A stretch of DNA of 64,000 nucleotides from an uncultured cyanobacterium (GTDB taxonomy: Bacteria; Cyanobacteriota; Cyanobacteriia; PCC-6307; Cyanobiaceae): positions 288,001 to 352,000 of the forward strand of contig CAVXWZ010000002.1 of NCBI GenBank assembly GCA_963765575.1. Direction: 5' to 3'. Shown here in pieces: positions 2,969 through 43,095 of this stretch; position 1 is the stretch's first letter, and each line of letters starts with the position of its first letter. A model generated the notes under the pieces. It made no database searches. It was not told the DNA's origin and saw nothing but the letters and a program-made list of their open reading frames with translations. The translations under genes were made by a program, and so were the position numbers.

Positions 2969-3104
2969 GCGGATCAACAATCAGGAGGGCTGATCTGGTC
3001 CAGTGACTGGGCCTGATCAGCAGCTGCCCAAAAAGCCCCTCATTCAGCGCACCACACCCGTATGGTGGGCCTCGACGAGCATCAACCCTCCCGGGCGCGG
3101 ACGC

Positions 3105-3338
3105 ATGAACTCCCTCGACGATCACACCATCGACGATCACATTCAGAAGGACAGGAGCGAAATCGAATCCGCTCGTGCCGCTGGAAACGATGGCAAGGTG
3201 CGCCACCTCGAAGAAGAGCTCAAGGGCCTCGAGGAGTACAAGTCGCACCACCCCGATGACAAGCACGACCCCAGCCCCCTGGAGGTCTACTGCGAGATGA
3301 ACCCGGAAGCCCCCGAGTGCCGGGTCTACGACGACTGA
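3105..3338 (+). CDS. cp12: CP12 protein, picocyanobacterial type with only the C-terminal Cys pair
   Basis: C-terminus [25 protein letters not shown] at 3105 chosen over the upstream GTG. Confidence 0.85.
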
Positions 3339-4351: not shown

Positions 4352-4358
4352 TGGCCCA

Positions 4359-4368
4359 AACCTAGGAT
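4359..4368. promoter_or_regulatory. Overlapping divergent -10-like elements (TAGGAT on +, TAGGTT on -)
   Basis: AACCTAGGAT in the 47-bp gap between divergent obgE and the ABC ATPase. Confidence 0.45.
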
Positions 4369-4398
4369 CACGCCTCAGCCGTTGTCCGGGACCACACG

Positions 4399-5619
4399 TT
4401 GGCCGAGGTTCGTTTCCAGCACGTGAGCAAGACCTTCCCGCCCCGGCGCGGAGGCGCACCGGTGCAGGTGCTGCGCGACCTCAACCTGCACATTCCCGAC
4501 GGCGAATTCCTGGTGCTGGTGGGGCCCTCCGGCTGCGGCAAGAGCACCCTGCTGCGCTTGCTGGCCGGGCTTGAGCAGCCGAGCAGCGGCGAAATCGTGG
4601 TGGGGGATCGGCCGGTGACCAGGCTGCGGCCCTCGCGCCGGGATGTGGCCATGGTGTTTCAGAGCTACGCCCTCTACCCGCACCTGTCGGTGGCGGGCAA
4701 CATCGGTTTCGGGTTGCGGCGCAGCCGTCCGCGCACGGCCCTCCAGCACCTGCAGGACAGCCTGCACCTGGCCAGCCGCCGCCTGCCGTCAGTGTTGCGG
4801 GTGCCGTCGCCGCGGGAGGAGCGCATCGAGGGCCGCATCGCCGAGGTGGCGGCTGCCCTGGAGCTGGAGCCGCTGCTGGGGCGGCTGCCCAAGGAACTCT
4901 CCGGGGGCCAGAAGCAACGGGTGGCCCTGGGCCGGGCGATCGCCCGCCAGCCGGCGGTGTTCCTGATGGATGAACCCCTCAGCAACCTCGACGCCAAGCT
5001 GCGTGCCGGCACCCGGGCCCAGATCGTCGACCTGCAACGGCGCCTGGGCACCACCACCCTTTACGTCACCCACGACCAGGTGGAGGCGATGACGATGGGC
5101 CATCGCATCGCCGTGCTCAACGCCGGGCGGCTGCAGCAGCTGGGCACACCGATGCAGCTCTACCGCTGGCCCGCCAACCTGTTCGTGGCCCAGTTCATCG
5201 GCAGTCCGCCCATGAACCTGCTGCCGGTGGAGGTGATCGCCCCCGGCCAGTTGCAGCTGGGCAGCCGCCGGATGGCCATCGAGGGCCCGCTGGCCGACAG
5301 CCTGGCCGGCCGCGTCGGGCACCGGCTCAGCGGCGGACTGCGGCCCGAGCACCTGCGGCTGGCGCCAGCCACCAACCGCAACCTGCGGGCCACCGTGAGC
5401 CACAGCGAGGCCCTCGGCAACGAACAGCTGGTCACCTGTCAGCTGGAGGAGGGCGACCATCTGGTGCAGCTGCGGGTGGCACCGGAGGATCAGCTGACCC
5501 CCGGCAGCACCATCCACCTGGAGGTGGATCCCGCCGGCTGGCGTCTGTTCGATGCCGGCGGCGAGGCCCTGCCGCTGCCCAGCCACCCGGGGCAGCCGCC
5601 CCTGCTGCCTGAGCTCTGA
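4399..5619 (+). CDS. Sugar ABC transporter ATP-binding protein (MalK/GgtA-like)
   Basis: [46 protein letters not shown]-terminal TOBE-like region. Confidence 0.93.
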
Positions 5620-5633
5620 GCGCGGAACCGCCC

Positions 5634-8075
5634 TCAGCGGGGATGGACCACGCTGCAGCCGGCGCCGCCATCGGAGCGCTCGGCATCGTGCACCCGCTCC
5701 ACGTAGGGCAGGGTGTCGAGCCAGGCCCGCAGCCCGCGCTTGAGCCGGCCGGTGCCGATGCCATGGATCACCCACACCGGACCGGCGGCGGCCCGCAGCG
5801 TTTCGTCCACCGCCGCTTCCGCCTCGTGCACCCGCAGACCGCGCACGTCCACGGTGTTGCCCGCGGTGCGCACATCCGGGCCGCGGGCGGCCAGGGCCCG
5901 GCGCCCCCGCACCTGAACCCGCACCTCGGCAGGGGCCGGCTTCTCCCCCTGCAGGCCCTCGATGCCCGCCAGGGGCACGCTGAGGCGCAGCACGCCGCAC
6001 CGCACCGTGAGCTCGCGGCGGTCAGCGGCGAGCTCCAGCACCTCGGCGGCTTTGCCCAGGGAGAGCACCCGCACCCGGTCCCCCACCGCCGGCATCCAGC
6101 CCGCATGCTCCCTCCGCTCCAGCCGGGGACTGTGCTGCTGCTCGAGGTGCTTGAGCCGGCGGCCGGCCTGACGGGCCGTTTCCCCCAGCTCCGCCGGATC
6201 GACGCGGCCGCCGCCATCGCCCTGGCGCAGCCGGCGGATGATGCGCCGCACCTCATGCTGACCCTGGCGGATGGAGCGCTCCAGCTGCTGGCGGCGCTGC
6301 TCCTGCTGCTCAGCGCTCTGCTGCTGCTGCTGCTGCCAGCGGGAGAGCAGCTCTTCATGGAGCAGTTCGGTGCGGGCCAGCAGGGCCGCGGCCTCCTCGG
6401 CCGCCTCCTGCTGGCGCTGGCGCTGCTCCTCCAGGCCCGCGATCACCTGATTCACCTCGCCCTCGCCGCGGGGCGCAAGCACCAGGGCGGCCTGCTCCAG
6501 CACCGCCGCATCCAGACCCAGCCGCCGGGCGATGGCCAGGGCGTTGCTGCGGCCGGGGATCCCCCACTGCAGGTGGTAGGTGGGGGCGAGGGTCTGCTCA
6601 TCGAAGGCCACGGAGGCGTTCTCGAAGCGGGGGTCGGCGTATTTGAGGGCCTTCAGCTCTCCCAGATGGGTGGTGGCCAGGGTGAGGCGGGCCCGCTCCG
6701 CCAGATGCTGGAGCAGGGCCGTGGCCAGGGCCGCCCCCTCCACCGGATCGGTGCCCGCACCCACCTCATCCAGCAGCACCAGGGAGGCGCCGGCGGCGGC
6801 TGGTCCAGCGGCGGGCTGGGCAGCGGCGGGCAGGGCCTCGAGGATGCGGGCAATGCGGCGGATGTGGCCGCTGAAGGTGGAGAGGTTCTGCTGCAGCGAC
6901 TGCTCATCGCCGATGTCGGCCAGCACCTGGGCGCACCAGGGCAGCCGCGGCGTGCCGCGACAGGGCAGGAACAGGCCGGCCCGGGCCATCAGCGCCGCCA
7001 GACCAATGCTCTTGAGGGTCACGGTCTTGCCGCCGGTGTTGGGGCCGGTGATGGCCACCACCCGCAGCGCTGGAGCCACGCTGACGCTCACCGGCACCAC
7101 GGCCTGCCCCCCCTCCCGCTTGTGCTGCCACAGCAGCAGGGGATGGCGCAGGTCCCGCAGCTCGAAGGGGGCTTCGGGGGTGTCCGCCAACGCCGGACGC
7201 ACGGCCCCCAGCCAGGCGCCGTAACGGGCGCGGGCGAGGGCCGCGTCGAGGCGCACCAGGGCGGCCCGCAGAACGTCGAGGGGGCCGGCCTGCTCCCCCA
7301 CCGCCGCACTGAGCTCACGCAGCACGGCCTGCTCCAGCTCCCGCTCCTGGGCATCGAGATCGCGGATGCGGTTGCCCAGCGCCAGCACGGCCTGGGGCTC
7401 GATGAACAGGGTCTGGCCGGAGGCGGAACTGTCGTGCACCTGGCCCGGCAGCTGGGCGGCAGCGCCGGCCTTCACCGCCAGCACGGGCCGGCCGCCGCGC
7501 TCGGCGACCACGGAGTCCTGCAGCAGCGGGGCCGAGCGGCGCAGCAGCTCCTGGAGGCGCGCGCGGCGCTCGGCGCGGGCGGCCTGAAGCTGGCGCCGCA
7601 ACCCCGCCAGGGGAGGGCTGGCCCGATCGGCGACGCGGCCCCCCTCCTCGAGGCAGAAGCGCAGCCGCTGCTCCAGCTCCGGCAGCGTGCTCAGCCCCGA
7701 CACCACGGCGCTGGTCACCGGCCGCAGGGCCGGGTCGTCGATCTGACGCCGCAACCGCCGCGCCGCGGCCAGGGTGGCCGCCAGTTCGAGCAGGGCCTCG
7801 CCCGAGGCCACGCCGCCCTTGGCGCACAGGCCCAGGCTGGGGGCGATGTCGGCCACGCCCTGGAAGCTCAGTCCGCCCTCAAGTAACCCATCGAGGGCCA
7901 GCAGTTCAGTGGTCTCGGCCAGCAGGGTGCGGCTTGCCGCCACGGTTGCGGGCAGGGGCAGGCCGCAACAATGGCGCCCACCGGCGGCGGTGCTGGCGAA
8001 GCTGGCCAGGTGGGCGGCGAGGCGGGGCCACTCCAGCAGCTCGAGGGTCTCCTGGGCGATCGCGGCCGCACTCAC
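5634..8075 (-). CDS. mutS2: Endonuclease MutS2
   Basis: ITGPNTGGKT, DIGDEQSLQQNLSTFSGHI, LLDEVGAGTDP, C-terminal Smr domain (VIHGIGTG, GGAGCSVV). Confidence 0.95.
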   Translation of the reverse strand: MSAAAIAQETLELLEWPRLAAHLASFASTAAGGRHCCGLPLPATVAASRTLLAETTELLALDGLLEGGLSFQGVADIAPSLGLCAKGGVASGEALLELAATLAAARRLRRQIDDPALRPVTSAVVSGLSTLPELEQRLRFCLEEGGRVADRASPPLAGLRRQLQAARAERRARLQELLRRSAPLLQDSVVAERGGRPVLAVKAGAAAQLPGQVHDSSASGQTLFIEPQAVLALGNRIRDLDAQERELEQAVLRELSAAVGEQAGPLDVLRAALVRLDAALARARYGAWLGAVRPALADTPEAPFELRDLRHPLLLWQHKREGGQAVVPVSVSVAPALRVVAITGPNTGGKTVTLKSIGLAALMARAGLFLPCRGTPRLPWCAQVLADIGDEQSLQQNLSTFSGHIRRIARILEALPAAAQPAAGPAAAGASLVLLDEVGAGTDPVEGAALATALLQHLAERARLTLATTHLGELKALKYADPRFENASVAFDEQTLAPTYHLQWGIPGRSNALAIARRLGLDAAVLEQAALVLAPRGEGEVNQVIAGLEEQRQRQQEAAEEAAALLARTELLHEELLSRWQQQQQQSAEQQEQRRQQLERSIRQGQHEVRRIIRRLRQGDGGGRVDPAELGETARQAGRRLKHLEQQHSPRLERREHAGWMPAVGDRVRVLSLGKAAEVLELAADRRELTVRCGVLRLSVPLAGIEGLQGEKPAPAEVRVQVRGRRALAARGPDVRTAGNTVDVRGLRVHEAEAAVDETLRAAAGPVWVIHGIGTGRLKRGLRAWLDTLPYVERVHDAERSDGGAGCSVVHPR

Positions 8076-8500
8076 GGGGCCGGCGGCGGGATCGGTGCCT
8101 GCCCGACGATGTTGCTGGGGATGCCGGTGGCGGGCTCGTAGAGCAGTTCAAGCCAGTTGCCCTCGGGGTCCCGCAGATAGCAGCTGGCGGTGCCATCGCG
8201 GTGGTCGTGCACGGGGCCGCAGCGGTGCCCGGCGGCCACGAGCTCGGCGCGGGCGGCATCCACCTCAGCGCGGTCGCTGAAGTGCAGGGCGACGTGGGGG
8301 CCGGCGGCGCTGTAGTCGGCGCTCAGCAGGGCGATGCCGGCACCGTCACCGGGCCACTGCAGGTAGGCCCAGTCGGCCGCATCCCAGGTGAGGCGCAGGC
8401 CGAGGGCCTGGTAGAAGGCCTTGGAGCGGGCGATGTCCTGCACCCGCAGGGCCACATGGCCGAGGCGGTGGCGAACGGTGGCAACGGGATCGCTGGCCAT
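8072..8500 (-). CDS. VOC/glyoxalase family protein
   Basis: LGHVALRV, HVALHF, YLRDPEGNWLEL motifs; ATG overlaps the hemB stop. Confidence 0.85.
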   Translation of the reverse strand: MASDPVATVRHRLGHVALRVQDIARSKAFYQALGLRLTWDAADWAYLQWPGDGAGIALLSADYSAAGPHVALHFSDRAEVDAARAELVAAGHRCGPVHDHRDGTASCYLRDPEGNWLELLYEPATGIPSNIVGQAPIPPPAP

Positions 8501-9501
8501 CAGGCCTGGCGCAGCCACGTGGCCGCGTCGCAGGCGTGGTAGGTGAGGATCAGGTTGGCACCGGCGCGCTTGAAGCACAGCAAGGTTTCCAGCACCACGG
8601 CCTGCTCGTCGATCCAGCCCCGTTCCGCCGCGGCCTTCACCATCGCGTATTCACCGCTGACGTTGTAGGCGGCAATCGGCTGCTCGCTCTCAGAGCGCAG
8701 CCGGTGGATGATGTCGAGGTAGGCCAGACCGGGCTTCACCATCAGGATGTCGGCCCCTTCGCTCTCATCGAGCTGGGCCTCCAGAATCGCCTCGCGGCCA
8801 TTGGCCGGATCCATCTGATACGTGCTCTTGTCGTCGGGAATGGGCTTGCCGCTGTTGGCGCGAGGTGCTGAATCCAGGGCTTCGCGGAACGGGCCGTAGT
8901 AGGCGCTGGCGTATTTGGCGCTGTAGCTGATGATCCCCACGTGCTCGAAACCCTCCTCGTCGAGGGCTTCACGGATGGCGCCGACACGGCCGTCCATCAT
9001 GTCGCTGGGTCCGATCAGGTCGGCGCCGGCGCGGGCCTGCACCACCGCCTGCTTGCAGAGGATCGCCACCGTCTCATCGTTCAGCACCACGCCCTCGGGG
9101 CTGACGATGCCGTCATGGCCATCACAGGAGTAGGGATCGAGGGCCACGTCCGTCATGATCGCCATGCCGGGGTGGGCCTGCTTGATCCGCCGGATGGCCC
9201 GCGGAATCAGGCCGTGCTCGTTGCAGCACTCGGCCCCATCCTCCGATTTCAGACCATCGGCCACCTTGGGGAACAGCACCACGCAGCGGATGCCCAGGTC
9301 CCAGGCCCGCCCCACTTCGGCCACCAGACCCTCCTGGCTCCAGCGCTGGCAACCGGGCATGGCGGCGATCGGTTCGTTGCTGGCCCCCTCATGCACGAAC
9401 AGGGGGTAGATGAAGTCGGCTGCAGTGAGCTGATGCTCCCGCACCATCGCCCGCAGGGCCGGGGTGCGGCGCAGCCGGCGGGGGCGGTAGGAGAGCTCCA
9501 T
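8500..9501 (-). CDS. hemB: Porphobilinogen synthase (ALA dehydratase)
   Basis: RPRRLR, DVALDPYSCDGHDG, SDMMDGR, SAKYASAYYGPFREA, MVKPG, AYNVSGEYAM. Confidence 0.98.
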   Translation of the reverse strand: MELSYRPRRLRRTPALRAMVREHQLTAADFIYPLFVHEGASNEPIAAMPGCQRWSQEGLVAEVGRAWDLGIRCVVLFPKVADGLKSEDGAECCNEHGLIPRAIRRIKQAHPGMAIMTDVALDPYSCDGHDGIVSPEGVVLNDETVAILCKQAVVQARAGADLIGPSDMMDGRVGAIREALDEEGFEHVGIISYSAKYASAYYGPFREALDSAPRANSGKPIPDDKSTYQMDPANGREAILEAQLDESEGADILMVKPGLAYLDIIHRLRSESEQPIAAYNVSGEYAMVKAAAERGWIDEQAVVLETLLCFKRAGANLILTYHACDAATWLRQA

Positions 9502-9547
9502 GCAGGGCTTGAGAGGGCCCTGGATCCTACGGAGACAGGGGCGGGGC

Positions 9548-10513
9548 CTAGAGCTGGGCCAGCTGGGCCCAGCCGGCCCGGGGGTCGACGCTGCGGGCGG
9601 CCCGCAACTCCTCGAGCAGGCTGCGTTCGCGCTCGCTGAGGGGCTCCGGCAGTTTGAGCACGGGGGTGAGCAGCAGGTCGCCGCGCCCGCCCTTGAGCGG
9701 CCAGCCCTTGCCTTTCAGCCGCAGGCTGCGGCCCGGGGTGAGGCCGGGAGGCACCTGCACCGAAGCCTCGCCGTCGGGGGTTGCCACCCGCACCTGACCG
9801 CCCAGGGCGAGCTCGTCGAGACTGAGGGGGAGCTCGGCGCGGAGCTGCTCACCATCGAGCTTCCACACCGGATGCTCCTGCAGCTGGATGGTGAGGTAGA
9901 GATCACCGCGGCGGCCCGTGCCCGGCTGCAGGTTGCCCTTGCCCTTGAGCCGCAGGCGGCTGCCGGGTTTGACGCCGGCGGGGATGCGCACCGCGACCCG
10001 CTCCTCGTTGACCGCCAGGGCACGCTCGCAGCCGCGGAAGGCCTCCGCCAGGCTGAGGCGGATGGTGGCGTCGGCGTCGAGATTGGCGGCACCTGCAGGA
10101 GCGCCGCCACCGAAGCCACTGGCCCCGAAGCCACCGGGAAAGCCGCTGCTGAAACCGAAGCCGCCGCTGCCGCCAGGCTGGGGCCCACCGCCGAAGCGCC
10201 CGAGCAGGTCGTTGATGAAGTCGTCGAAGTTGCCGTAGCGGCCGAAGTCCACATCCATGCCGCCGGAGCCGGCACCGGCCTGGCTCCAGTACTGGCCGAA
10301 CTGTTCGTAGCGACGGCGCTTGTCGGGATCGGAGAGCACCTCGTAGGCCTCGCTGATCTCCTTGAAGCGCGCTTCTGACGCCTTGTCTCCGGGATTGACA
10401 TCCGGATGGAACTGCCGGGCCAGCTTGCGGAAGGAGCGCTTGATCGTGTCGGCATCGGCACTCCGCTCCACGCCCAGCACCTTGAAGTAGTCGCGGTAGC
10501 CGTTGGCGTTCAT
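9548..10513 (-). CDS. DnaJ-class chaperone lacking the zinc finger (CbpA-like)
   Basis: J domain with HPD, G/F-rich region, C-terminal LRLKGKG/GDL repeats; start MNANGYRDYF at 10513. Confidence 0.92.
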   Translation of the reverse strand: MNANGYRDYFKVLGVERSADADTIKRSFRKLARQFHPDVNPGDKASEARFKEISEAYEVLSDPDKRRRYEQFGQYWSQAGAGSGGMDVDFGRYGNFDDFINDLLGRFGGGPQPGGSGGFGFSSGFPGGFGASGFGGGAPAGAANLDADATIRLSLAEAFRGCERALAVNEERVAVRIPAGVKPGSRLRLKGKGNLQPGTGRRGDLYLTIQLQEHPVWKLDGEQLRAELPLSLDELALGGQVRVATPDGEASVQVPPGLTPGRSLRLKGKGWPLKGGRGDLLLTPVLKLPEPLSERERSLLEELRAARSVDPRAGWAQLAQL

Positions 10514-10663
10514 CGCGGGGCAGCGCTGGCGAGGATGGGACAAGGCCTCCAGTCTCTCAGCTCCCGTGGAGCCCTGCGGCCCAAGCGCCAGCGTTGGCGT
10601 CGCCAAGGATGGCGGCGGCTGGGAGCAGGCTCCCGTAGCCTGGCCGGCCCTGCTGAGACACCC

Positions 10664-11158
10664 GTGGCACGATCCGGCTGGCATCGCCCCCTGGCGCTGG
10701 TGCCGCTCACGCTCGGCCTGATGGCCTTGATGGCCTGCGCCGGTGCTGGCGCGGGGGACCGCGGCCGGGGGGACACCATCGCCAGGGAGCAGACGGGCAG
10801 TGCCGGCAGGGCTGGCTCCACGTCGCCGCGGCTGGGGGAGGCCCTCGACAAGTCCAACGACGAACAGAAGGCCCTCAGCGCCCATCTGCGCGCGCGGGGG
10901 GCGGTGTTCTACGGGGCCTGGTGGTGTCCGGCCTGCTTCCAGCAGAAGAGCCTGTTCGGCAAGCAGGCCGGCAACACCCTCCCCTATGTGGAATGCGACG
11001 AGGAGCCCGGCCGCGCCCGCTGTCAGGCGGCCGAAGTGCGCGCCTTCCCCACCTGGGAGCTGGAGGGCAAGCCGCGCCTGGAAGGCGTCCAGAGCCTGGA
11101 CGAGCTGAAGGCCTGGAGTGGGTTCGAGGCCGGTGGCGCGGCGGCGGCCCAGCCCTGA
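10664..11158 (+). CDS. Thioredoxin-like predicted lipoprotein, similar to the Trx domain of cyanobacterial VKOR/DsbAB
   Basis: Hydrophobic N-terminus ending LMAC; FYGAWWCPAC, LPYVECD, FPTW motifs; start uncertain. Confidence 0.7.
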   Translation: MARSGWHRPLALVPLTLGLMALMACAGAGAGDRGRGDTIAREQTGSAGRAGSTSPRLGEALDKSNDEQKALSAHLRARGAVFYGAWWCPACFQQKSLFGKQAGNTLPYVECDEEPGRARCQAAEVRAFPTWELEGKPRLEGVQSLDELKAWSGFEAGGAAAAQP

Positions 11159-33386: not shown

Positions 33387-34787
33387 GCCTGCTGCCGGCC
33401 CTCGCCCTGATCGCTCGGGGCCTTGGCGACCCTGGGGTTGCTACTGGCGCTGGGTCGGGCGATCGGGCCGGCCCTGGGGCTGCAGCGACTGGGGCTGCCG
33501 GCGGCCGTGGTGGCCGGGCTGCTGGGGCTGTTGATCGGCCCCTATGGTCCCTGGCCGGTGATGCCCCCTGCGGTGGAGGAGCTCTGGGCGCGACTGCCCA
33601 CGATCCTGCTCACCCTGGTCTTCGGCACCCTGATGCTGGGACGGCCCCTGCCCGCCGTGCAGCGCTTCTGGCGCGCGGCCGCCGCCCAGACCCTGCTCGG
33701 GTTGACGCTGGGCTTCGGCCAGTACCTGATGGGCGCCCTGACGGTGCTGCTGCTGCTGGGCCCCTGGCTGGGGGTGAATCCGCTGATGGCCTGCCTGATC
33801 GAGGTGGGCTTCGAGGGGGGGCACGGCAGTGCCGCGGTGATGGGACCGATCTATGCCGACCTGGGGTTCGTGGAGGGCAGCGACCTGGGGCTGGCGATGG
33901 CCACCGTGGGCCTGCTCAGCTCCACCCTGCTGGGGGGGGTGCTGGTGGTGATCGCCCAGCGCTTTGGCTGGCTGATGGCTCTTGAGCCTGTGGCCCTTGA
34001 GCCTGCGCTGGCGGGTGGTGGCCTCGAACCTGTGGCCCCGGAGCCAGCCGCCGGCCCCCACCAGCCCAGCTGTCCCCTGCCCGATCCGGCCGCGGGCCGC
34101 GAGCTCGGGGAGGTGGCAATGCTGCTGATCAACCTGGGGCTGGTGGGCCTGGCGGTGGGCCTGGGGGTGCTGATGGAGGTTGCCCTCAACTGGGCCGCCA
34201 CGCCCCTGCATGGCGCTTGGCGCACCGTGGTGGACGCCCTACCCGTCTACCCCCTGGCCCTGGCTGGCTCGCTGCTGGTGCGTCTGGCCCTGGAGCGCAG
34301 TGGCCGCAGCGATCTGGCCTCCCCCCAGCTGCAGACCCGCCTGGGGGGCCTGGCCACCGACCTGCTGATCACCGCGGCGATGGCGGGCCTGAATCTGCCC
34401 CAGCTGGCCAAGAGCTGGCTGCCGCTCACGGTGCTCGCCAGCGCCGGCCTGGCCTGGAATCTGCTGGTGGTGCTGGTGCTGGCCCGCCGGGTGCTGCCGG
34501 TCGACTGGTTCGAGCGCGCCGTGATCGAGTTCGGCCAGGCCACCGGGGTGGCCGCCACGGGCCTGCTGCTGCTGGGCATGGCCGATCCCAGCAACCGCAG
34601 CGAAGCGCTGCCGGCCTTCTCGATCAAGCAGTTGCTGCTGCAACCGGTGCTGGCCGGTGGCGTGGTCACGGTGGCGGCACCGCTGGCCGTGAACAGCTGG
34701 GGGCTGCCGCTGTGGTGTGAGTTGTGCTTCGGTCTCACGGTTCTCTGGATCACACTGGCGCTGCTGCTGGCCCGTCAGCCGGCCTGA
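33383..34787 (+). CDS. Sodium/glutamate symporter family protein, paralogue 1 (probable indel near 33418; main ORF 33423-34787)
   Basis: IEVGFEGGHG, FGQATGVAATG motifs; many TM segments. Confidence 0.85.
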
Positions 34788-34799
34788 GCCCCGATCACC

Positions 34800-36158
34800 A
34801 TGAAGCTGTTCGATGTGCTGATCGCCTTTGTGGCGCTCAGCCTGCTGCTGCTGCTGGCCACGGCGCTGCGGCAGCGGCTGCCGCTGCTGCGCCGATCAGG
34901 CCTGCCCGAGGCCCTGGTGGCCGGCCTGCTGGGGCTGGCGATCGGGCCCTTCAGCCCCCTGCGCCTGTTTCCCGAGAGCGTCTACACGGTGTGGAGCCAG
35001 ACCCCCGGGGTGCTCATCAACGTGGTGTTCGCCAGCCTGTTTCTGGGCCAGAGCCTGCCCAGTAGGAGGGTGGTGTGGCAGCGGGCCGCCAGCCAGACGG
35101 CCTTCGGCATGGTGCTGGGCTTCGGGCAGTACCTGGTGGGTGGACTGGTGCTGCTGCTGGTGCTGCGACCGCTGTTGGGCAGCGATCCGCTGCTGGCCTG
35201 CCTGATCGAGGTGGGCTTCGAGGGCGGCCACGGCACCGCCGCCGGGATGGGGACCACCTTCAGCCGCCTGGGGCTGACCTCCGGCGAGGCCCTGGGCCTG
35301 GCGATGGCCACCTTCGGCGTGCTGGCCGGGGTGCTGGTGGGCAGCACGCTGGTGATGATCGGTCGCCGGCGCCAGTGGCTGCTGCCCTCGGATCAGCAGC
35401 AGCGTGGGGGGGAGGCGACCGGGCAGGTGGAGCGGCCGGCAGCGGCTGCGAGCTCGCCCACGATCGACGCCCTCACCCTCAATCTGGCCCTGATCGGTGC
35501 CGCGATCGGTCTGGGGGTGCTGCTGCGCCATGGCCTGGTGAGACTGGCCGGGGGCCTGGGTGGTGAGCCCACCGGCCAGCTGTTCGCAGCCCTGCCCCTG
35601 TTTCCCCTGGCGATGGTGGGCGGACTGCTGGTGCAGCGCCTGCTGCAGTGGCAGGGGCAGCCCCGCCTGGCCTCGGTGAGCGCCCAGCGCAGCATCGGCT
35701 CGTTGGCCATGGATGTGCTGATCGCCGCGGCGATGGCCAGCCTCAACCTGCCGCTGGTGGAGGAGGCCTGGCTGCCGCTGCTCGTGCTCGCCCTGGCGGG
35801 GCTGGGCTGGAACGTGGCGGTGTTCCTGTGGCTGGGACCACGGCTGTTCCGCAATGCCTGGTTCGAGCGGGCGATCGCCGATTTCGGCCAGAGCACCGGC
35901 ATCACCGCCACCGGGCTGCTGCTGCTGCGCATGGCCGACCCCTACGGCCGCAGTCCGGCGCTGGAGGGCTTCTCGTTCAAGCAGCTGGTGTATGAGCCCT
36001 TCCTGGGCGGCGGGCTGGTCACCGCCTTCGCCCCGATCGCGTTGGTGGCCCTGGGCTTGCCCCTGTGGACCCTGGTGGCCCTGGGGCTCACCCTGGCGTC
36101 CCTGGCGTTCGGAGTCGCCATGGCCCGTCAGCGACCGGCCGGTGTGGCGGCTCCGTAG
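34800..36158 (+). CDS. Sodium/glutamate symporter family protein, paralogue 2
   Basis: IEVGFEGGHGTAAG, FGQSTGITATGLLLLRMADP motifs. Confidence 0.9.
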   Translation: MKLFDVLIAFVALSLLLLLATALRQRLPLLRRSGLPEALVAGLLGLAIGPFSPLRLFPESVYTVWSQTPGVLINVVFASLFLGQSLPSRRVVWQRAASQTAFGMVLGFGQYLVGGLVLLLVLRPLLGSDPLLACLIEVGFEGGHGTAAGMGTTFSRLGLTSGEALGLAMATFGVLAGVLVGSTLVMIGRRRQWLLPSDQQQRGGEATGQVERPAAAASSPTIDALTLNLALIGAAIGLGVLLRHGLVRLAGGLGGEPTGQLFAALPLFPLAMVGGLLVQRLLQWQGQPRLASVSAQRSIGSLAMDVLIAAAMASLNLPLVEEAWLPLLVLALAGLGWNVAVFLWLGPRLFRNAWFERAIADFGQSTGITATGLLLLRMADPYGRSPALEGFSFKQLVYEPFLGGGLVTAFAPIALVALGLPLWTLVALGLTLASLAFGVAMARQRPAGVAAP

Positions 36159-36799
36159 TTCAGCGCCTGCATGCGGGCAGCCACCCGCTGCATCTCGGCG
36201 GCACTGAGCAGCGGCGGCTCACCAAGCTGCAGGGCTTCGAGATACACGTGCGCCAGGGTCTCCACCTCCAGCGCCAGAGCCACGGCCTGATCCAGATCGC
36301 CCCCCAGGGCCACCTGGCCGTGGTGGGCCAGCAGACAGGCGCGGCGATCTCGCAGGGCCGCCAGGGCCCGATCGGAGAGCTCCTGGCCGCCGAAGGTGGC
36401 GTAGGGGGCGCAGCGGATCTCGGCGCCACCGGCCACCACCACCATGTAATGGAAGGCGGGAATGGCGCGGCCGTGACAGGCCAGGGCCGTGGCGCGGATC
36501 GAGTGGCAGTGCACCACGGCCTGAATCTCGGGCCGGCTGGCCAGGATGTCGACGTGCAGGCGCCATTCCGAGGAGGCCTGACGGCCGGGGGCTGCGTGGC
36601 GGACCCGCCCCTGCCCGTCGAGCTCCACCAGATCCTCCGGGCCCATCTGCTCAGCGGGCAGGGAACTGGGGGTGATCAGCAGGCCATCGGATAGGCGCAG
36701 CGAGAGGTTGCCGGCCGTGCCCTGATTGAGGCCGAGGGCCCGGAGCCCCTTGGCGGCGGCCAGCAGCTGGCGCCGGGACTTCTCGTTCGCCAGCGGCAT
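36128..36799 (-). CDS. Class II aldolase/adducin family protein (FucA/Ald2-like)
   Basis: [37 protein letters not shown] at 36799 (the longer track ORF is an antisense shadow of intI). Confidence 0.9.
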
Positions 36800-36868
36800 G
36801 GGGGCAGGTGGGCTGCAGAGAGCGTAGGCAGCCATGGCGAGGCAACCCTGAGACAGCCCCCCAAGGCC

Positions 36869-37849
36869 ATGACCATGGCAGCAAAGGCCAAGCCTGCAGG
36901 CCTGATCCAGCGCTACCGGGAGGAGCTGGAGGTGCGCCGCTATGCGCGTCGGACGGTGGCGACCTATGAGCAATGGCTGCGGCGATACCTGCGGTTTCAC
37001 CGGATGCAGCATCCCCGGGAGATGGGAGAGGCCGAGATCAATGCCTTTCTCAGCCATCTGGCCACGGAAGAGCACGTGAGTGCCTCAACGCAGAACCAGG
37101 CCCTGGCGGCACTGCTGTTTCTCTACCGCACGGTGCTCGGGGGTGATTTGGGCAGCCTGGAGGGGGTGATCCGGGCCCGCAAGCGCCGGCGCCTGCCCGT
37201 GGTGCTCACGGTGTCGGAGGTGCGAGCCGTTATGAATGAGCTGGAAGGCACAGAGGGCCTTGTGGCCCAGCTGCTGTACGGGAGTGGGCTGCGGCTCATG
37301 GAGGCGCTGCGCCTGCGGGTCAAGGATGTGGATCTCGAACAGCGCTCCATCACCGTGCGCAGCGGCAAAGGAGACAAGGACAGACTCACGGTGCTCCCCG
37401 CCAAACTGGTGGAGCCTCTGAAAAGCCACCTTCGCGACGTGAGGCGGGTGCACCAAGCCGATCTCGCTGCGGGCTGGGGGGCGGTGGAGTTGCCCAATGC
37501 CCTCGAGAGGAAATACCGCAATGCGGCCCGGGAATGGGGCTGGCAATGGCTGTTTCCCCAGGGCCGACGCTGGCGGGATCCACGGCGGAACCTCGAGGGA
37601 AGGCACCATCTTGATCCCAGCCTTGTGCAGCGTGCCGTGCGCGGTGCTGTGCAGGCCGCGGGGATCAGCAAGCCGGCGACCTGCCACACCTTCCGCCATT
37701 CATTCGCCACGCATCTTCTGGAGCAGGGGGCCGACATCCGCACGATTCAGGAGCTGCTCGGCCACAGCGATGTGAAAACCACCATGATCTATACCCATGT
37801 GCTGAACCGAGGGCCGTCTGGGGTACGAAGCCCGGCAGACCTGCTCTGA
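36869..37849 (+). CDS. intI: Integron integrase IntI
   Basis: [45 protein letters not shown], IntI-specific patch [49 protein letters not shown]. Confidence 0.97.
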
Positions 37850-37859
37850 GGGAGGGCGG

Positions 37860-38021
37860 GATCTTCCGCGGACCGCGTAACAACCCGTGAAGCAGGTGGC
37901 GACAACCGAGAGGCGTTGCTACAGATGATTTCAGCCCAAGAGAGAAGCTGGCGATCGGTAGCTTATGCGGCAAAGCGCAGGCTGGCGGCAGCTTCTGCGG
38001 TCCGCCGAATCACTGTTAGTA
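37860..38021 (+). other. Candidate attI site; predicted crossover G/TT at 38015-38017
   Basis: GTTAGTA just before the first cassette, preceded by three imperfect (G/T)CTTnnGCGG repeats at 37862, 37961 and 37991. Confidence 0.6.
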
Positions 38022-38070
38022 CGTATCCAGCAAGCCGTTGACCGTAAGCCTCGTCTAGTACAGCCGCCTT

Positions 38071-38318
38071 ATGGTCGTGCAGAGAAGGTTCAGAAGTGGG
38101 GAAACAGCCTTGGCGTGAGGATTCCACGCGGTTTGGCAGATGAGGTGGGCTTGGGGGCTGGTACGGAAGTCAGCCTCACCGCGAAGGATGGTGAGCTGGT
38201 CTTGAGGCCCTCATTGCCTAGCCGGCTCAGGCTTGTGGATCTTCTTGCTGATATCACTCCAGAGAACATTCACGCCTCCGTTGATACGGGGGATGCCGTA
38301 GGTTCCGAAGCGTTCTGA
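38071..38318 (+). CDS. mazE: MazE/AbrB-family antitoxin (cassette 1); start anomalous
   Basis: KVQKWGNSLGVRIP and C-terminal ITPENIH...G..VGSE; ATG at 38071 is out of frame by 1 nt, the only in-frame ATG is at 37965. Confidence 0.85.
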
Positions 38319-38674
38319 TGTCTACCTACGTGCCTGATCGTGGCGATTTGGTGTGGCTGGAGTTCACGCCACAGGCCGGAAGTGAGCAGCGTGGAAGACG
38401 GCCAGCACTGGTTATATCCCCAAAGGCCTACAATGGAAAAGTAGGGCTGGCACTATTTTGTCCAATTACATCCAAGATCAAGGGTTACCCTTTTGAGGTT
38501 CTGCTGCCTGATGGATACTCCGTGAGTGGAGTTGTTCTGTCCGATCAGCTGAAGAGCCTAGACTGGCGAACGAGGAAAGCGAAGTTCATTGAGCGGATTT
38601 CTTCAGATGTAATGGAGATGGTTACTGCGAGGGTATTACCGCTTCTTGAACCTGACACTCCTGCCACTCTCTAA
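38318..38674 (+). CDS. mazF: MazF endoribonuclease toxin (cassette 1)
   Basis: YVPDRGDLVWLEFTPQAGSEQRGRRPALVISP..YN, CPITS..KGYPFEV, DQLKSLDWR; TGATG coupling to the antitoxin. Confidence 0.95.
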   Translation: MSTYVPDRGDLVWLEFTPQAGSEQRGRRPALVISPKAYNGKVGLALFCPITSKIKGYPFEVLLPDGYSVSGVVLSDQLKSLDWRTRKAKFIERISSDVMEMVTARVLPLLEPDTPATL

Positions 38675-38758
38675 CACCACCATGCACCTGAGCCGCCACC
38701 GCATGGCTATCTTCTTCGCCGTGCACTCCTTGCGGCCAGGTGATGGCGAGCGTTAGAA
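38669..38758 (+). other. attC site 1 (90 bp)
   Basis: R'' CTCTAAC containing the mazF stop; CAT(G)CACCTG(A)GCCGC pairs with GCGGCCAGGTGATG leaving two unpaired bases; R' GTTAGAA. Confidence 0.92.
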
Positions 38759-38893
38759 GGATGGGCGGGAAGCTGTCGACACATTCCCTTGGGTACACAT
38801 GCCCATGCTCCCTTTGGCAAGCCAGGGGGGAGGCTGTTCGATGATTTCCTGGCTAGGGTGGAGCACGAATACAAGGGAGATCCAAAGAAGGGA

Positions 38894-39103
38894 ATGGAAA
38901 ACCTCTATGAAGCTGTCGTTGAGCCTGACGGAAGAATACGGCTCAATACATCAGTTCACCTACAAAAGGGCCTCAAGGTCTTGGTCGCAGTGCCACGATG
39001 CCAGAAGGATTCAGCTTTCAGCGGAATTGCCTTAAGCGAACCCTCGCTTTCAAAAGATTGGCTCAATCAGGATGAAGAAGAAGCATGGGCGCACCTTCAG
39101 TAG
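38894..39103 (+). CDS. Putative antitoxin (cassette 2)
   Basis: 69 aa; N-terminal YEAVVEPDGRIRL, acidic C-terminus LSEPSLSKDWLNQDEEEAWAHLQ; purine-rich RBS; overlaps the toxin gene by 19 nt. Confidence 0.75.
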   Translation: MENLYEAVVEPDGRIRLNTSVHLQKGLKVLVAVPRCQKDSAFSGIALSEPSLSKDWLNQDEEEAWAHLQ

Positions 39104-39438
39104 GGGATGTTGTAATTATCCCTTTTCCCTATTCTAATCTATCGCAATCCAAGCGCAGACCTGCTCTGGTTCTAGCTGAAGCGGGCAGAGGTGATTTCCT
39201 GCTATGCCAGATCACCAGCAAGCAATATGGCGATCTTCATGCCTTGCCCCTCAAAGAGTCCGACTTCTTCTCCGGAGGCATCAAGCGAGACAGTTTCATC
39301 CGTGGCACCAAGCTCTTCACTGCCAATGAGACTCTCATTCTTGGAGTTGCTGGCCATCTAACCCATTTCAAGCTTTCAGAAGTTGTTTCCCAACTTATTG
39401 ATATCCTATCTGCTTGCCTGAAAGATGACACCTTCTAA
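39085..39438 (+). CDS. PemK/MazF-family toxin (cassette 2)
   Basis: GDVVIIPFPYSNLSQSKRRPALVL, LCQITS, SFIR..KLFT. Confidence 0.9.
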   Translation: MGAPSVGDVVIIPFPYSNLSQSKRRPALVLAEAGRGDFLLCQITSKQYGDLHALPLKESDFFSGGIKRDSFIRGTKLFTANETLILGVAGHLTHFKLSEVVSQLIDILSACLKDDTF

Positions 39439-39517
39439 CATCCAGGTACAGAAGGCGGGACCGATAGCTGTCTTCTATGCCGAGATTCGTGCCCGCTTCT
39501 GATCTGGAGCGTTAGCC
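39433..39517 (+). other. attC site 2 (85 bp)
   Basis: R'' TTCTAAC (contains the toxin stop; exact complement of the GTTAGAA opening this cassette); GGT(A)CAGAAG(G)CGGG pairs with CCCGCTTCTGATC; R' GTTAGCC. Confidence 0.92.
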
Positions 39518-39551
39518 GGCCGCGAAAAGCCCTTAATCCATTATTCCCACG

Positions 39552-40181
39552 ATGAGCGACATGGCCTTGCTGGACGACTTCTCGCGGCTGGCCGTGAATT
39601 CACGACTTGCGTGGCACTGCGAACCCAAGCTTTGGTCGGTTGACCCGAGCGTCCCGTGCCTTCGAGTCAGTCCAGATGCTGCGACCGACTTCTGGCAGCG
39701 AACTCACTACGGATTTGAGGCTGACAATGGACACTTCCTGCATCTCTGGGCCGAAGGCGACTTCGTCCTCACGACCAAGGTCACGTCTCGGCCAGCGCAC
39801 CAGTACGACCAAGCAGGTCTGATGGTACGCCTATCTCCTTCCTGCTGGCTCAAGACCTCCGTAGAGTTCGAGCCCGACGGAAACAATCGGCTCGGAGCGG
39901 TTGTAACCAATGCACAGTATTCCGACTGGTCTACCCAGTCGCTGGCCAAAGAAATTCGAACAGTCTGGTTCCGGATTCGCGCAGAGCACAGTGACTACAT
40001 CGTCGAGTCGTCCGTCGATGGGCGGCATTGGGAGCAGCTGCGAATGGCACGGCTTTTCGAGCGGCCGGCAGTCAAAGCTGTTCAATGCGGGCCGTATGCA
40101 TGCAGCCCCAAGGCTTCAGGGTACGAGGCACAGTTCTCCTACCTGAGGTTCGAGCCTGGCCATCTTGCCGAGACCATGTAG
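39552..40181 (+). CDS. DUF1349-like (ConA-like fold) protein (cassette 3)
   Basis: TDFWQRTHYGF..DNGH, YDQAGLMV, WLKTSVE, GAVVTN..YSDWS, YACSP; starts 35 bp after the attC2 R' box. Confidence 0.85.
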   Translation: MSDMALLDDFSRLAVNSRLAWHCEPKLWSVDPSVPCLRVSPDAATDFWQRTHYGFEADNGHFLHLWAEGDFVLTTKVTSRPAHQYDQAGLMVRLSPSCWLKTSVEFEPDGNNRLGAVVTNAQYSDWSTQSLAKEIRTVWFRIRAEHSDYIVESSVDGRHWEQLRMARLFERPAVKAVQCGPYACSPKASGYEAQFSYLRFEPGHLAETM

Positions 40182-40325
40182 CTCATCTACGGCCCCCTTG
40201 AGCCGTTGTGGTGCAGATCCCTCTGGCGGGGCCACACCGGCGGCATCCGCTCAGCTCAAGCGTGATGCCATCAAGCACCCTCAAGGTGATACGTCCTGGA
40301 TCCCAGGTTGCGCCGAGCTCGAGCG

Positions 40326-41445
40326 TTAGTCCCGCTCTCCATACAGCCCGCGCAATCCCGCCTCACTCGCCGCCGCCACACCCCGCTCGGTGATCAGGCC
40401 GCTCACCAGCCGCGCCGGTGTCACGTCGAAGGCCGGGTTGAAGGCGTCGCTGCCCTCCGGTGTGAGCCGCACGCCGGTGATCGCCCCATCGGCGCCTACG
40501 CCCTGGATATGGGTCACCTCCTCGGCGCTGCGGGCCTCGATCGGGATCTCCGCCAGCCCATCACGGATCGACCAGTCGATCGTGGAGCCCGGCAGCGCCA
40601 CATAGAAGGGCACGCCGTTGTCGTGGGCGGCCAGGGCCTTGAGGTAGGTGCCGATCTTGTTGCACACGTCGCCGCTGCGGGTGGTGCGATCGCTGCCCAC
40701 GATGACGGCGTCCACCAAGCCGTGCTGCATCAGGTGGCCGCCGGCGTTGTCGGCGATCACCGTGTGCGGCACCCCCTCCCGCCCCAGCTCCCAGGCGGTG
40801 AGGCTGGCGCCCTGGTTGCGCGGCCGCGTCTCATCCACCCACACGTGCACGGCCAGGCCGGCGCGGTGGGCCTTGTAGATCGGTGCCAGGGCCGTGCCCC
40901 AGTCCACCGTGGCGATCCAGCCGGCATTGCAGTGGGTGAGCACGTTCAGGGGCTCGCCCTGGCGCTGCGGCGGCCGCGGCGGCGGCCAGCTCCTGCAGGA
41001 TCAGGCGCAGGCCGTGCTCACCGATCGCCGCGCCCATGGCCACGTCCTCGTCGGCGATCGCTGCCGCCTCGGCCCGGGCCGCCGCGGCCCGCTGCGGCCG
41101 GTGGCAGCGGCGCCACCCGGGCGCGCACCCGCTCCAGCGCCCAGCGCAGGTTCACCGCCGTGGGGCGGGTGGCGTCGAGCTGCTCGAACGCCGCCCTGCC
41201 AGCGCAGCGTCGCAGGGGTCGGCCTGCAGCGCCAGCATCAGCCCGTAGGCGCCGGTGACACCGATCAGCGGCGCCCCCCGCACCACCATCGTGCGGATCG
41301 CCTCGGCCGCCTCGTCGCAGCTAGCGCAGGGTGCGGGTGGCGAAGCGGTGCGGCAGCAGGGTCTGGTCGATCACCCCGATCCGAGCGAAGCACGCCCCTC
41401 CGGCTCCAGCCAGATCGTGCGCCAGGGCTTGCCGTCGATGTTCAT
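40326..41445 (-). pseudogene. mtnA: S-methyl-5-thioribose-1-phosphate isomerase with about five frameshifts in the 5' half (possibly assembly errors)
   Basis: Reconstructed across frames: MNIDGKPWRTIWL / VIDQTLLPH / MVVRGAPLIG / TRPTAVNL / [41 protein letters not shown]. Confidence 0.9.
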
Positions 41446-41520
41446 GGTGAGGTGAGGTGAGCGGGGTCGCCCGCCGGGTGGGGGTTCCGATCATCTCTGG
41501 CCTGTCATCCCTGGCCCAGC

Positions 41521-42066
41521 TCAGATCGGCCGGTAGCCGAACCAGTCCGGCACCTGGGGCTGGCTGAGGCCCTGCGGGTGGGGCTCCAGCGTCACCTGCC
41601 AGCCCTCGCCACCCGCAAGCTCCAGCTGCTCCAGGGCCAAACAGTCATCCACGGCCCAGAGGTCGTCCTTGTGCTGCTGCAGCGCGCCACGCAGCCACTG
41701 GCGCTTGGCCGCCGCCTTGGCCGCCTGGGCTGAGCGGGCCACCACCAGGCCGAAGTGGTGGAGCTCCGCCAGGGAATCGGGGCGGTAGGCGCCCAGATTC
41801 ACGAACCAGAGCTGCTCGCTCCGGGGCGCGCCGGGCTGGCGCCGCAGGCTCACCGCCCAGCCGTCCACCGCCCGCACCCCCATCCAGGCGTCCAGGTGCA
41901 AACCCCCGCGCCTGCCAAACCACTGCCGCCGCAGCTCCGGGATCGCCGCCTCGATCGAGGCCGCCGCCACGAAGCGCACGTCGTGCAGCTCGATGTGGCA
42001 ACCGGGCGCGCGACCGCCCAGCACCGCCAGGAACAACAGCGGGGCTGGCGGTTCAGACGTGATCAT
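41521..42066 (-). CDS. DUF1543-like protein
   Basis: LFLAVLGG...IELHDVRF, LHLDAW, LWFVNLGAY...ELHHF, HKDD. Confidence 0.85.
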   Translation of the reverse strand: MITSEPPAPLLFLAVLGGRAPGCHIELHDVRFVAAASIEAAIPELRRQWFGRRGGLHLDAWMGVRAVDGWAVSLRRQPGAPRSEQLWFVNLGAYRPDSLAELHHFGLVVARSAQAAKAAAKRQWLRGALQQHKDDLWAVDDCLALEQLELAGGEGWQVTLEPHPQGLSQPQVPDWFGYRPI

Positions 42067-42159
42067 CGGTGGCGAGGACTCCACCCCAGCCAACCAGAAC
42101 CAGGGGCGCCGTGGGTCCGTTGGCGTCAGGCTGGGGCAGCCCCCCGCCTGCTCCAGCCC

Positions 42160-43095
42160 ATGGCCCCGCCGCTCGCCGAGATGCCCGCCCTTGGGCTGGG
42201 CACCTGGAAAGCCGCCCCCGGCGAGGTGGGCGCGGCGGTGCGCTCGGCCCTGCGCCTCGGCTATCGCCACATCGACTGCGCCGCCATCTACGGCAACGAG
42301 GTCGAGATCGGCACCGCCCTGCACAGCGCCCTCGGGCAGGGCGAGCTGCAGCGCGAGCAACTCTGGATCACCTCCAAGCTCTGGAACGACTGCCATGCCC
42401 CCGACCAGGTGCGCCCCGCCCTGGAGCGCAGCCTCGCCGATCTGCAGCTCTCCCACCTCGACCTCTACCTGATCCACTGGCCGCTGGCGCACCGCCACGG
42501 GGTGCTGATGCCCAGCGTCGCCACCGACCAGATCCCCCTCGCGCAGCTGCCGCTGCATCGCACCTGGGCCGCCCTGGAGGAGCTGGTGGATGCGGGGCTG
42601 GTGCGGCGGATCGGGGTGTCCAACTGCAGCGCCGCCAAGCTCGCCGAGCTGCTGCCCCATTGCCGCATCCGACCGGCGGTGAACCAGGTGGAACGCCACC
42701 CCTGGCTGCAGCAGCGCGAGTTGCTGGCCTTCTGCCGCCAGCAGGGCATCGCCATCACCGCCTATTCGCCCCTGGGATCACCAACCGGCAGCGCACCCGC
42801 CCCCCTGCTCAGCGATCCGGTGGTCACCGCCATCGCCGCGGCCCACGGCGTCAGCGCCGCCCAGGTGCTGCTGGCCTGGGGGATCGCCTGCGGCACCTGT
42901 GTGATTCCCAAGTCGGTGAACCCTGAGCGGCAGGCGGCCAACCTCCAGGCGGCCAGCAGCCCGCAGCTCAGCCCTGCCGAGATGGAGCGGATCGCCGGCC
43001 TCGATCGCCAGCACCGCTTCGTGGACGGCAGCTTCTGGGAGCTGCCCGGCGGCCCCTACACCCGCGCCAACATCTGGGATGAACCCGCCACCTGA
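42160..43095 (+). CDS. Aldo/keto reductase
   Basis: GLGTW, GYRHIDCAAIYGNE, SKLWN, LDLYLIHWP, IGVSN, NQVE.HP, AYSPLG, IPKS. Confidence 0.95.
   Translation: MAPPLAEMPALGLGTWKAAPGEVGAAVRSALRLGYRHIDCAAIYGNEVEIGTALHSALGQGELQREQLWITSKLWNDCHAPDQVRPALERSLADLQLSHLDLYLIHWPLAHRHGVLMPSVATDQIPLAQLPLHRTWAALEELVDAGLVRRIGVSNCSAAKLAELLPHCRIRPAVNQVERHPWLQQRELLAFCRQQGIAITAYSPLGSPTGSAPAPLLSDPVVTAIAAAHGVSAAQVLLAWGIACGTCVIPKSVNPERQAANLQAASSPQLSPAEMERIAGLDRQHRFVDGSFWELPGGPYTRANIWDEPAT

Follow-up and report, generated by a model that had tools for sequence, protein, structure and literature searches.

The window analysed here, 64,000 nucleotides (nt) from an uncultured Cyanobium-type picocyanobacterium (GenBank assembly GCA_963765575.1, hereafter G000; contig CAVXWZ010000002.1, positions 288,001 to 352,000), carries a chromosomal integron between a class II aldolase gene and mtnA, which encodes methylthioribose-1-phosphate isomerase. 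On the evidence of sequence comparison with relatives, the gap between the two genes is a long-standing variable slot, and the integron is its present occupant. A first-pass annotation of this DNA had proposed that the integron entered at the mtnA stop codon, or was reshaped there by its integrase, and thereby split an operon. Its description of the layout is accurate: mtnA and the aldolase gene both lie on the minus strand, and from the aldolase onwards they are separated only by 69 nt, the integrase gene intI (+), the attI region, three cassettes (+) and a 144-nt tail. No transposase was found among the open reading frames (ORFs) inside the element, which agrees with the annotation's view that no transposon is involved, and a search of positions 34000-43000 for direct and inverted repeats returned GC-rich noise only.

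A variable slot between mtnA and the aldolase gene

We scored the two genes as adjacent when their matches lay within 200 bp of each other, in genomes with both genes among the matches listed; 35 mtnA matches, 18 low-scoring aldolase rows and about 23 weaker intI rows fall outside this count. Among the matches listed, mtnA and the aldolase are adjacent in 47 of 76 genomes of other genera versus only 5 of 28 congeners. The expectation that the genes adjoin where there is no integron is therefore borne out in the other genera and fails within the genus: as read from these matches, adjacency is the usual state of the family, and within the genus most pairs are separated, mostly by something other than an integron. 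In 16 of 29 congeners the gene facing the mtnA stop encodes an M48 peptidase, which we take to be htpX, and in others a PAP2 gene sits at that place; no M48 gene was found in G000. The cargo of the slot thus differs from relative to relative and consists of htpX, PAP2, other genes, or integrons of at least three lineages of the integron integrase IntI.

Does the integron interrupt a working operon? Bacterial -10 boxes follow the pattern TAnnnT, and a -10-like TA(S)(S)NT box, a motif defined after viewing the upstream alignment, is present 5' of the aldolase gene in 27 of 34 genomes in which the two genes are spaced (5.0 expected) and in none of three in which they directly adjoin. A sigma-70 promoter scan upstream of the aldolase gave 0 matches and no full promoter, and in two RNA runs, considered with a view to co-transcription, only 6% of the sequence words were present. 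Going by the -10-like box, the aldolase would be transcribed from its own predicted promoter, and because of this the integron would cut no working operon and leave the pathway unbroken, contrary to the operon splitting first proposed.

Integrases of several lineages in one slot

Integrons occupy the slot in 8 of 28 congeners (G000, G008, G019, G009, G007, G011, G027 and G002), and also in G327, G138 and G210, which belong to two other genera; G210 has no aldolase match. The slot integron is contained on one contig in G000, G008, G019, G009 and G007, is cut by contig ends in G011 and G027, and has a broken intI in G002. Its orientation is constant: intI is directed away from the aldolase, and the array extends toward the 3' end of mtnA. 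The far ends of the arrays differ: the distance from the last attC site to the mtnA stop is about 5.1 kb in G019, 3.1 kb in G009, 10.7 kb in G002, 1.1 kb in G007, 0.5 kb in G138, 3.4 kb in G327 and 6.2 kb in G210, and the G008 array closes with a truncated attC left half followed by a spacer of about 55-60 nt before the stop. None of the eight other readable slot arrays ends at the mtnA stop.

The integrases were placed in a midpoint-rooted tree of 20 DNA rows, all from family members, with the slot group named by position beforehand; G002 (fragmented), G138 and G027 (both too short) were left out. The slot integrases fall into at least three clades, and a single clade is rejected by the approximately unbiased test (p-AU 0.00032 for 8 rows and 0.00041 for the 6 congeners). 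The integrase of G000 groups with those of G008, G011 and G007 and with those of G145 and G321, while the G019 and G009 enzymes group with the integrase of a second slot, and those of G327 and G210 stand apart. IntI of G008 is 93% identical to that of G000 (G008/G011 93-94%), with the same left border and different right ends, whereas G000 shares only 70-71% identity with G019 and G009. As to where close intI homologues sit, a check that the first-pass annotation had suggested, integrons recur in the same slot in the eight congeners, and in the clade mates G145 and G321 intI lies on contigs other than that of mtnA. In terms of sedentary chromosomal integrons, the locus is fixed and no transposon flanks it; vertical inheritance of IntI at the slot, however, holds within G000, G008 and G011 only.

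The trees are midpoint-rooted, and the mtnA tree is weakly resolved. A single ancient insertion followed by replacement of intI fits the polyphyly as well as repeated arrivals do, and because the trees are in effect unrooted the two histories are indistinguishable in them.

The second recurrent integron slot lies directly behind a glutamine-synthetase-family gene and holds integrases of two clades (L062-L066, L070). More widely, intI is found in 24 of 32 congeners and in 77 of 301 family genomes. At E<=0.001, 29 of 32 congeners have attC sites, with up to 38 per genome and many of them clustered. The first cassette of G008 (L031 6069-7091) encodes a SMODS-type nucleotidyltransferase (a weak Pfam match, below cut-off), followed by a membrane protein gene, and is a possible CBASS-like defence cassette as judged from these genes. 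In G145, whose IntI is 83% identical to that of the window, the first cassette of the integron (L092 11506-12021) carries a flavodoxin gene.

A probable orphan attC arm at the mtnA stop codon

The boxes of an attC site are labelled R'', L'', L' and R'. Re-reading of the sequence confirmed the letters first reported at the end of the array, AGCT at 40316-40319, CGAGC at 40320-40324 and GTTAGTC at 40325-40331, with the TTA at 40326-40328 being the TAA stop of mtnA. The resemblance of this arm to the right arms of attC1 and attC2 could be quantified with a right-arm weight matrix built from 31 attC sites of the window and its relatives, attC1 and attC2 included. The terminal 18-mer scores 18.2 bits, a value reached at only 10 of 5,419,434 positions of the genome: the terminal site itself, six attC sites confirmed by the covariance model, and three copies of one other 18-mer. 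For 42 other genomes, the region within 120 nt of the mtnA stop gives a best right-arm score of 6.8. The terminal motif is thus very likely a true attC right arm, on the strength of this score.

The remainder of the site was not found in the tail. The best covariance-model scores for a full attC are 2.1 bits (40185-40268) and -2.3 bits (40273-40331), and full but degenerate sites at 40185-40268, 40242-40331 or 40182-40331 were rejected on their non-significant model scores. No recognisable left half is present, a 6-of-7 L''-like match at 40186-40193 standing without an R''. Segments 40242-40331 and 40182-40331 fold better than their shuffles (z -3.2 and -2.8), but not in the shape of an attC hairpin, and a single bottom-strand hairpin that pairs AAC with GTT did not appear. 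Among the 66 complete attC sites of the loci examined, none has an R' TTA that serves as the stop of a host-like convergent ORF; as far as these loci go, the overlap of attC and stop codon is a one-off, peculiar to G000.

Searches for the origin of the tail were likewise negative. The tail gave no real match in plasmids or congeners, and no relative of cassette 3 with an attC was found: ten DUF1349 homologues at 57-63% are not cassettes, and viral contigs held none. The exact junction, searched together with a degenerate mtnA 3' pattern, was absent from metagenome and viral contigs and returned three genome records only; the same searches found no empty conspecific site. A reading frame at 40226-40270 resembles the C-terminus of a transaldolase family that is absent from this genome, although not significantly in an unbiased test. 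A transaldolase 3' remnant in the tail is at most a weak candidate, as the match that suggested it (E 1.4e-5 in 1 of 301 genomes) fell to E 0.09-0.95 once the suggesting sequence was removed from the profile; with that sequence included, the profile gave E 0.04-0.1.

Origin of the junction

Probably the distal end of the array was trimmed late, in this lineage only, and the mtnA junction is the result. G000 has its platform in common with G008 and G011, and the native spacer of about 57 nt left of the mtnA stop in G008 recurs beside an mtnA remnant in G007 (p=0.001), from which it follows that an array of this IntI clade once ended about 60 nt from a TGA stop. For the 70 nt left of the stop in G000 no relative has a convincing counterpart: six comparisons gave p>=0.5 in five cases and p=0.028, uncorrected, in the best (G009), in line with the earlier supposition that the sequence left of 40325 is not conserved. 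A homology of the G000 and G011 spacers was considered and dropped (p=0.53 and 0.38). The stop itself keeps the codon position that it has in G008, G011 and G019 (Y-G-E-x-x-stop), but reads TAA instead of the usual TGA; the mtnA genes of 28 congeners end in 25 TGA, 3 TAG and no TAA, and of 1371 long ORFs rich in G+C at third codon positions (GC3) in this genome 57 end in TAA and 17 in TAAC. In one public contig with about 98% identity to mtnA, the match begins no earlier than 40331 and is preceded by 82 unlike letters, which would place the break to the right of GTTAGT and not at G|TT. Cassettes that begin with GTTAGT exist, among them cassette 1 of the window and examples in G008 and G138.

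Our best explanation combines the history of the slot with a junction made by plain deletion, and we would put the case for it at no better than evenly balanced; the weights given to this and the following readings are matters of judgement. The far end of the array would have decayed in this lineage, and a plain deletion would have fused the bases immediately following an attC crossover (GTTAG...) with the terminal codons of mtnA; the attC R' box would now supply a TAA stop at the ancestral codon position. In favour of a deletion are the rarity of TAA and the contig whose match begins at 40331. Several points weigh against this explanation. A blind deletion has to end just behind an attC crossover and also preserve the register of the old stop, and without guidance by microhomology the latter would be coincidental; IntI would account for the coincidence at the crossover at no extra cost. 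The last codons of mtnA vary widely, and G030 and G138 end in GAC-TGA, one transition from the observed letters, so that a native TTAGTC is not far-fetched. The contig matching from 40331 is a single record of depth 4. Finally, the loss of the attC left arm is explained by none of the models, and deletion and integrase action both need it to have happened later.

The strongest competitor, which we consider less probable while still a serious contender, is that IntI itself made the junction. Here mtnA would have drifted to ...GAC TAA C, which on the opposite strand offers GTT as a secondary genomic site (attG), attC x attG recombination would have excised everything from a distal attC to the stop, and the left arm would have decayed afterwards. 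If this were true, the junction would preserve a natural attG scar, at the last position that could be tolerated ahead of a gene the cell needs. The crossover G|TT indeed coincides with the outer border of the stop codon, with the stop kept at its ancestral position, IntI is intact in this genome, and attC sites abound in the genus (29 of 32 genomes). The GAC last codon of G030 and G138 puts the required precursor one transition away. GTT also fits the GWT consensus of secondary sites, and in E. coli such excision, at sites close by in the genome and with loss of genomic DNA, has been demonstrated (Loot et al., bioRxiv 10.1101/2022.09.11.507474). On the other side, the model needs a prior change of TGA to TAA, with TAAC at only 17 of the 1371 ORFs and TAA at none of the 28 congener stops; the match of the close-strain contig ends at 40331 rather than 40326; no intact attC substrate is left; and the same arrangement occurs at none of 66 other attC sites.

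That the terminal motif does not derive from attC at all, and is a chance look-alike or a consensus error in a poorly assembled stretch, seems to us improbable. One conceivable look-alike is the tail of a convergent ORF, now decayed, that read ...AELER-stop and whose TAG shares bases with the mtnA TAA. The left arm is absent, the 13 bases left of the crossover, taken alone, meet an equal or higher score at 7,546 positions of the genome, 3 of the 10 best scores belong to sites unconfirmed as attC, and the short transaldolase-like reading lies in the same frame; moreover, six insertions disturb the adjacent mtnA gene, and the junction is in no listed contig piece. Against these stand the full 18-mer, which ranks in the top 10 out of 5.4 million positions and lies on the correct strand at the end of a real array, and the lack of anything similar near 42 other mtnA stops. 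The half of mtnA beside the junction aligns gap-free, the transaldolase match lapses (E 0.09-0.95) without its suggesting sequence, and by-eye comparison found no listed transaldolase coordinate adjoining mtnA.

Entry of the whole integron as a unit, inserted by IntI at the mtnA stop and splitting an mtnA-aldolase operon, has in its favour that adjacency is ancestral in the family, that the right junction is of G|TT form with no transposase inside, and that platforms do move between loci, but it is by far the least credible reading and is largely refuted by the sequences of G008, G011 and G007. By the chemistry of the crossover, insertion of a circle by attC x attG recombination leaves G|WT at both ends (consensus from 10.1101/2022.09.11.507474), and there is no GWT at 36800-36868, between the start codons of the aldolase and intI, which makes entry by IntI unlikely; G008, with 93% IntI identity and the same left border, has a different right end with the native spacer shared with the G007 remnant; and the slot was already open, the genes being apart in most congeners. 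A left IntI scar at GCG-TAGGCAG was also considered, but this sequence is native, TAGGCAG being kept in the integron-free G010.

How modules may reach the slot

If the integron did not enter at the stop codon, how would it have come to the slot? The most informative relative is G007, where the order is aldolase, PAP2, an internally deleted mtnA 3' piece, an aldolase 5' piece, intI, array, spacer, mtnA 3' piece, htpX and mtnA. The aldolase 5' remnant has upstream DNA of the G000 type, and the spacer with the mtnA 3' remnant is of the G008 type (79% over 151 nt). Orphan mtnA 3' remnants occur in 4 of 35 genomes (G007, G027, G010 and G015), two of them without intI in the slot. Whole modules may therefore be brought in by incoming DNA through homologous recombination within the flanking genes; alternatively, homology in mtnA could combine with an illegitimate join at the other end and leave orphan mtnA 3' pieces behind. 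Such an arrival would require neither a transposase nor an IntI step, and integron movement by homologous recombination has been reviewed (PMC3575428). The orphan mtnA 3' pieces are what one would expect as the footprint of mtnA-anchored recombination with an illegitimate join at the other end. The intI of the G007 module (L035, G007:C3:25500-38500, oriented 2900-10700) is frameshifted, and its left junction is common to G027.

Integrity of mtnA and assembly support

In the assembly, mtnA is frameshifted. Judged by alignment with G008, G011 and G019, it has six insertions (8, 1, 2, 1, 3 and 1 nt, 16 nt in total) in its 5' half, at about 40975-41390, and measures 1120 nt against 1104; the 3' half, which adjoins the junction, aligns without gaps. 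Because mtnA is the single copy in the genome, mtnB is also present, and contigs of two public runs lack the extra base at 41322, the insertions are probably assembly (consensus) errors; otherwise mtnA would be a pseudogene of a single-copy salvage gene. A crude genome-wide frameshift survey flagged 9 of 114 binned regions, 3 of them mtnA. Most of the five other regions inspected are not clear errors, and so the assembly is not generally error-ridden. No junction-bridging piece was found among the listed contig pieces from four public runs, and consequently this assembly is the sole source of the junction letters; across 39880-40307 those public contigs give zero or almost zero depth, which is no evidence of absence.

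Anatomy of the locus

The features of the locus are listed in Table 1. The integrase is the only one in the genome at E<=1e-60, and a G(G)(C/G)AA-NN-CTG-like motif, by our reading by eye, lies upstream of most of 20 displayed intI genes at any locus. Identity with G008, G011 and G007 ends at the GTT at 38015-38017, beyond which the first cassettes differ. The mazE-mazF cassette is also present in the arrays of G008 and G145, cassette 2 has other neighbours on public contigs, and both stand in other orders in relatives and public contigs. Cassette 2 begins with GTTAGAAGG, the complement of the left end of attC2. For cassette 3 no attC of its own is recognisable. The cassettes have a G+C content of 49-61%, compared with 67-80% in the flanks. 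Both attC sites were in the training set of the covariance model; their fold z-scores are independent of that training. With IntI, an attI with G|TT, and attC-bounded cassettes that show R'', L'', L' and R' boxes and a bottom-strand hairpin, all components of a complete integron are present, and by its sequence the element looks like a working integron, chromosomal and of the co-oriented ('inverted integrase') type.

Table 1. Features of the integron locus and its flanking genes (window coordinates).
Feature	Coordinates	Strand	Basis
Class II aldolase (Ald2/FucA-like), 223 aa	36128..36799	-	PF00596 E 8.5e-50
-10-like hexamer TACGCT, putative own promoter of the aldolase	36821..36826	-	TA(S)(S)NT motif
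Conserved motif 5' of intI at the left platform edge, probable intI promoter element	36841..36851	+	
Intact integron integrase IntI (326 aa), same direction as the cassettes	36869..37849	+	TIGR02249 464 bits, cut-off 265
attI region, crossover G|TT at 38015/38016	37850..38021	+	Identity of relatives ends there
Cassette 1, mazE-mazF toxin-antitoxin pair	38016..38752	+	PF04014, PF02452, NF007386 over cut-off
attC1, complete	38669..38758	+	78.8 bits; bottom-strand hairpin z -4.8
Cassette 2, small uncharacterised ORF and PemK-like toxin	38753..39511	+	PF02452 31.4 bits
attC2, complete	39433..39517	+	72.5 bits; hairpin z -2.8
Cassette 3 gene, DUF1349	39552..40181	+	PF07081 E 3.1e-57; begins 40 nt past attC2
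Decayed tail without complete attC	40182..40311	+	
Orphan attC right arm (very likely): L' 40312-40318, spacer, R' GTTAGTC 40325-40331	40312..40331	+	
mtnA (methylthioribose-1-phosphate isomerase), frameshifted in the assembly	40326..41445	-	TIGR00512 over cut-off

The solved structures closest to the predicted aldolase are fuculose-phosphate aldolases (FucA), and the protein scores under every NCBIfam cut-off. Downstream of it, at 33423-36158, lie two tandem genes for sodium/glutamate symporters of the GltS type, conserved at this place in many relatives, the second of which overlaps the aldolase 3' end by 31 nt. Elsewhere in G000 there are cassette clusters and a single attC site remote from intI (CALIN- and SALIN-like) at C11:394465-395162, C11:664751-664840 and C2:556783-557900, and the ORFs at C11:394000-395060 look by eye like small toxin-antitoxin pairs.

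Relation to known systems

The ingredients of this locus are all known: co-oriented chromosomal integrons, replacement of intI at a fixed locus, and action of IntI at GWT secondary sites. The first-pass annotation had called the proposed recombination an unusual mobility route, but recombination of attC with secondary sites had already been described (10.1101/2022.09.11.507474). No paper on this locus or its integrons turned up in our literature search, whose coverage omits bioRxiv supplements and most subscription journals; cyanobacterial integrons as such are on record (10.1101/030866, PMC8618304), and a Synechococcus IntI appears in PMC3108266 and PMC3607928. The slot with its swapped platforms is more interesting than the stop-codon overlap, which is a one-off curiosity. 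What the locus adds is a natural, testable series, with several integrase lineages in one slot and donor-flank remnants that can still be read in G007. This series is relevant to the question of how chromosomal integrons, without transposons, move to new hosts and new addresses; the junction is one candidate natural attG junction. Speculating further, and with doubt outweighing confidence, we propose that the integrons of Cyanobium-type genomes may be sedentary in address only: platforms of several lineages would be traded through a few fixed slots by transformation-type recombination, without a transposase and anchored in housekeeping genes, while IntI would trim the ends of the arrays at secondary sites and would have left here a natural attC x attG scar, placed exactly at the stop codon of a needed gene.

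The flanking genes recall the DHAP (dihydroxyacetone phosphate) shunt of MtnP or MtnK, MtnA and Ald2, whose aldolase cleaves methylthio- or 5-deoxy-ribulose-1-phosphate and for which an mtnA-ald2 pair is described (PMC8102628, 10.1101/2023.08.10.552779). MtnA and a predicted class II aldolase are likewise encoded here, adjacent in most family members, and a phosphorylase-family gene is found elsewhere in the genome, these genes being assigned by protein family only. Unlike that pair, the two genes are separated in most congeners, and mtnB is also in the genome.

In Treponema, intI points toward attI and the cassettes (PMC3607928; the group is named in PMC3575428), and the IntI tree in the former places a Synechococcus integrase beside the Treponema clade. 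The integron of G000 resembles these by orientation, with intI directed toward attI and cassettes and no transposon around. In contrast to Treponema, which shows one gain and vertical descent, several IntI lineages here occupy one slot.

The sedentary ilvD integron of Xanthomonas (10.1101/2025.06.18.660453) also keeps a fixed address across species, frequently shows decay of intI, and is accompanied by CALINs elsewhere. A divergent intI replaces the resident one at that locus (68% in X. arboricola), comparable to the 70-71% found here. However, intI is present at ilvD in nearly all genomes, whereas the slot described here is used by 8 of 28 congeners, and in the present case there are a second slot and non-integron modules in the same slot.

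In attC x attG recombination (10.1101/2022.09.11.507474), genomic sites with a GWT core undergo insertion and excision, with deletion of neighbouring DNA; the GTT of the junction fits that core, and the putative event here would be of this kind. That work demonstrated the reaction for cassettes, with IntI1-3 in E. coli, and not for whole platforms, and the attC at the junction is incomplete.

The proposed exchange of modules recalls the type VI secretion system (T6SS) effector-immunity arrays of Vibrio cholerae, in which modules are anchored in a conserved gene and displace older ones, leaving orphan ends, a displacement attributed to homology-facilitated illegitimate recombination (PMC5361080). 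The slot between mtnA and the aldolase differs in that its anchor is a metabolic gene and its cargo includes integron platforms, and in both systems the mechanism would be one deduced from the arrangement left behind.

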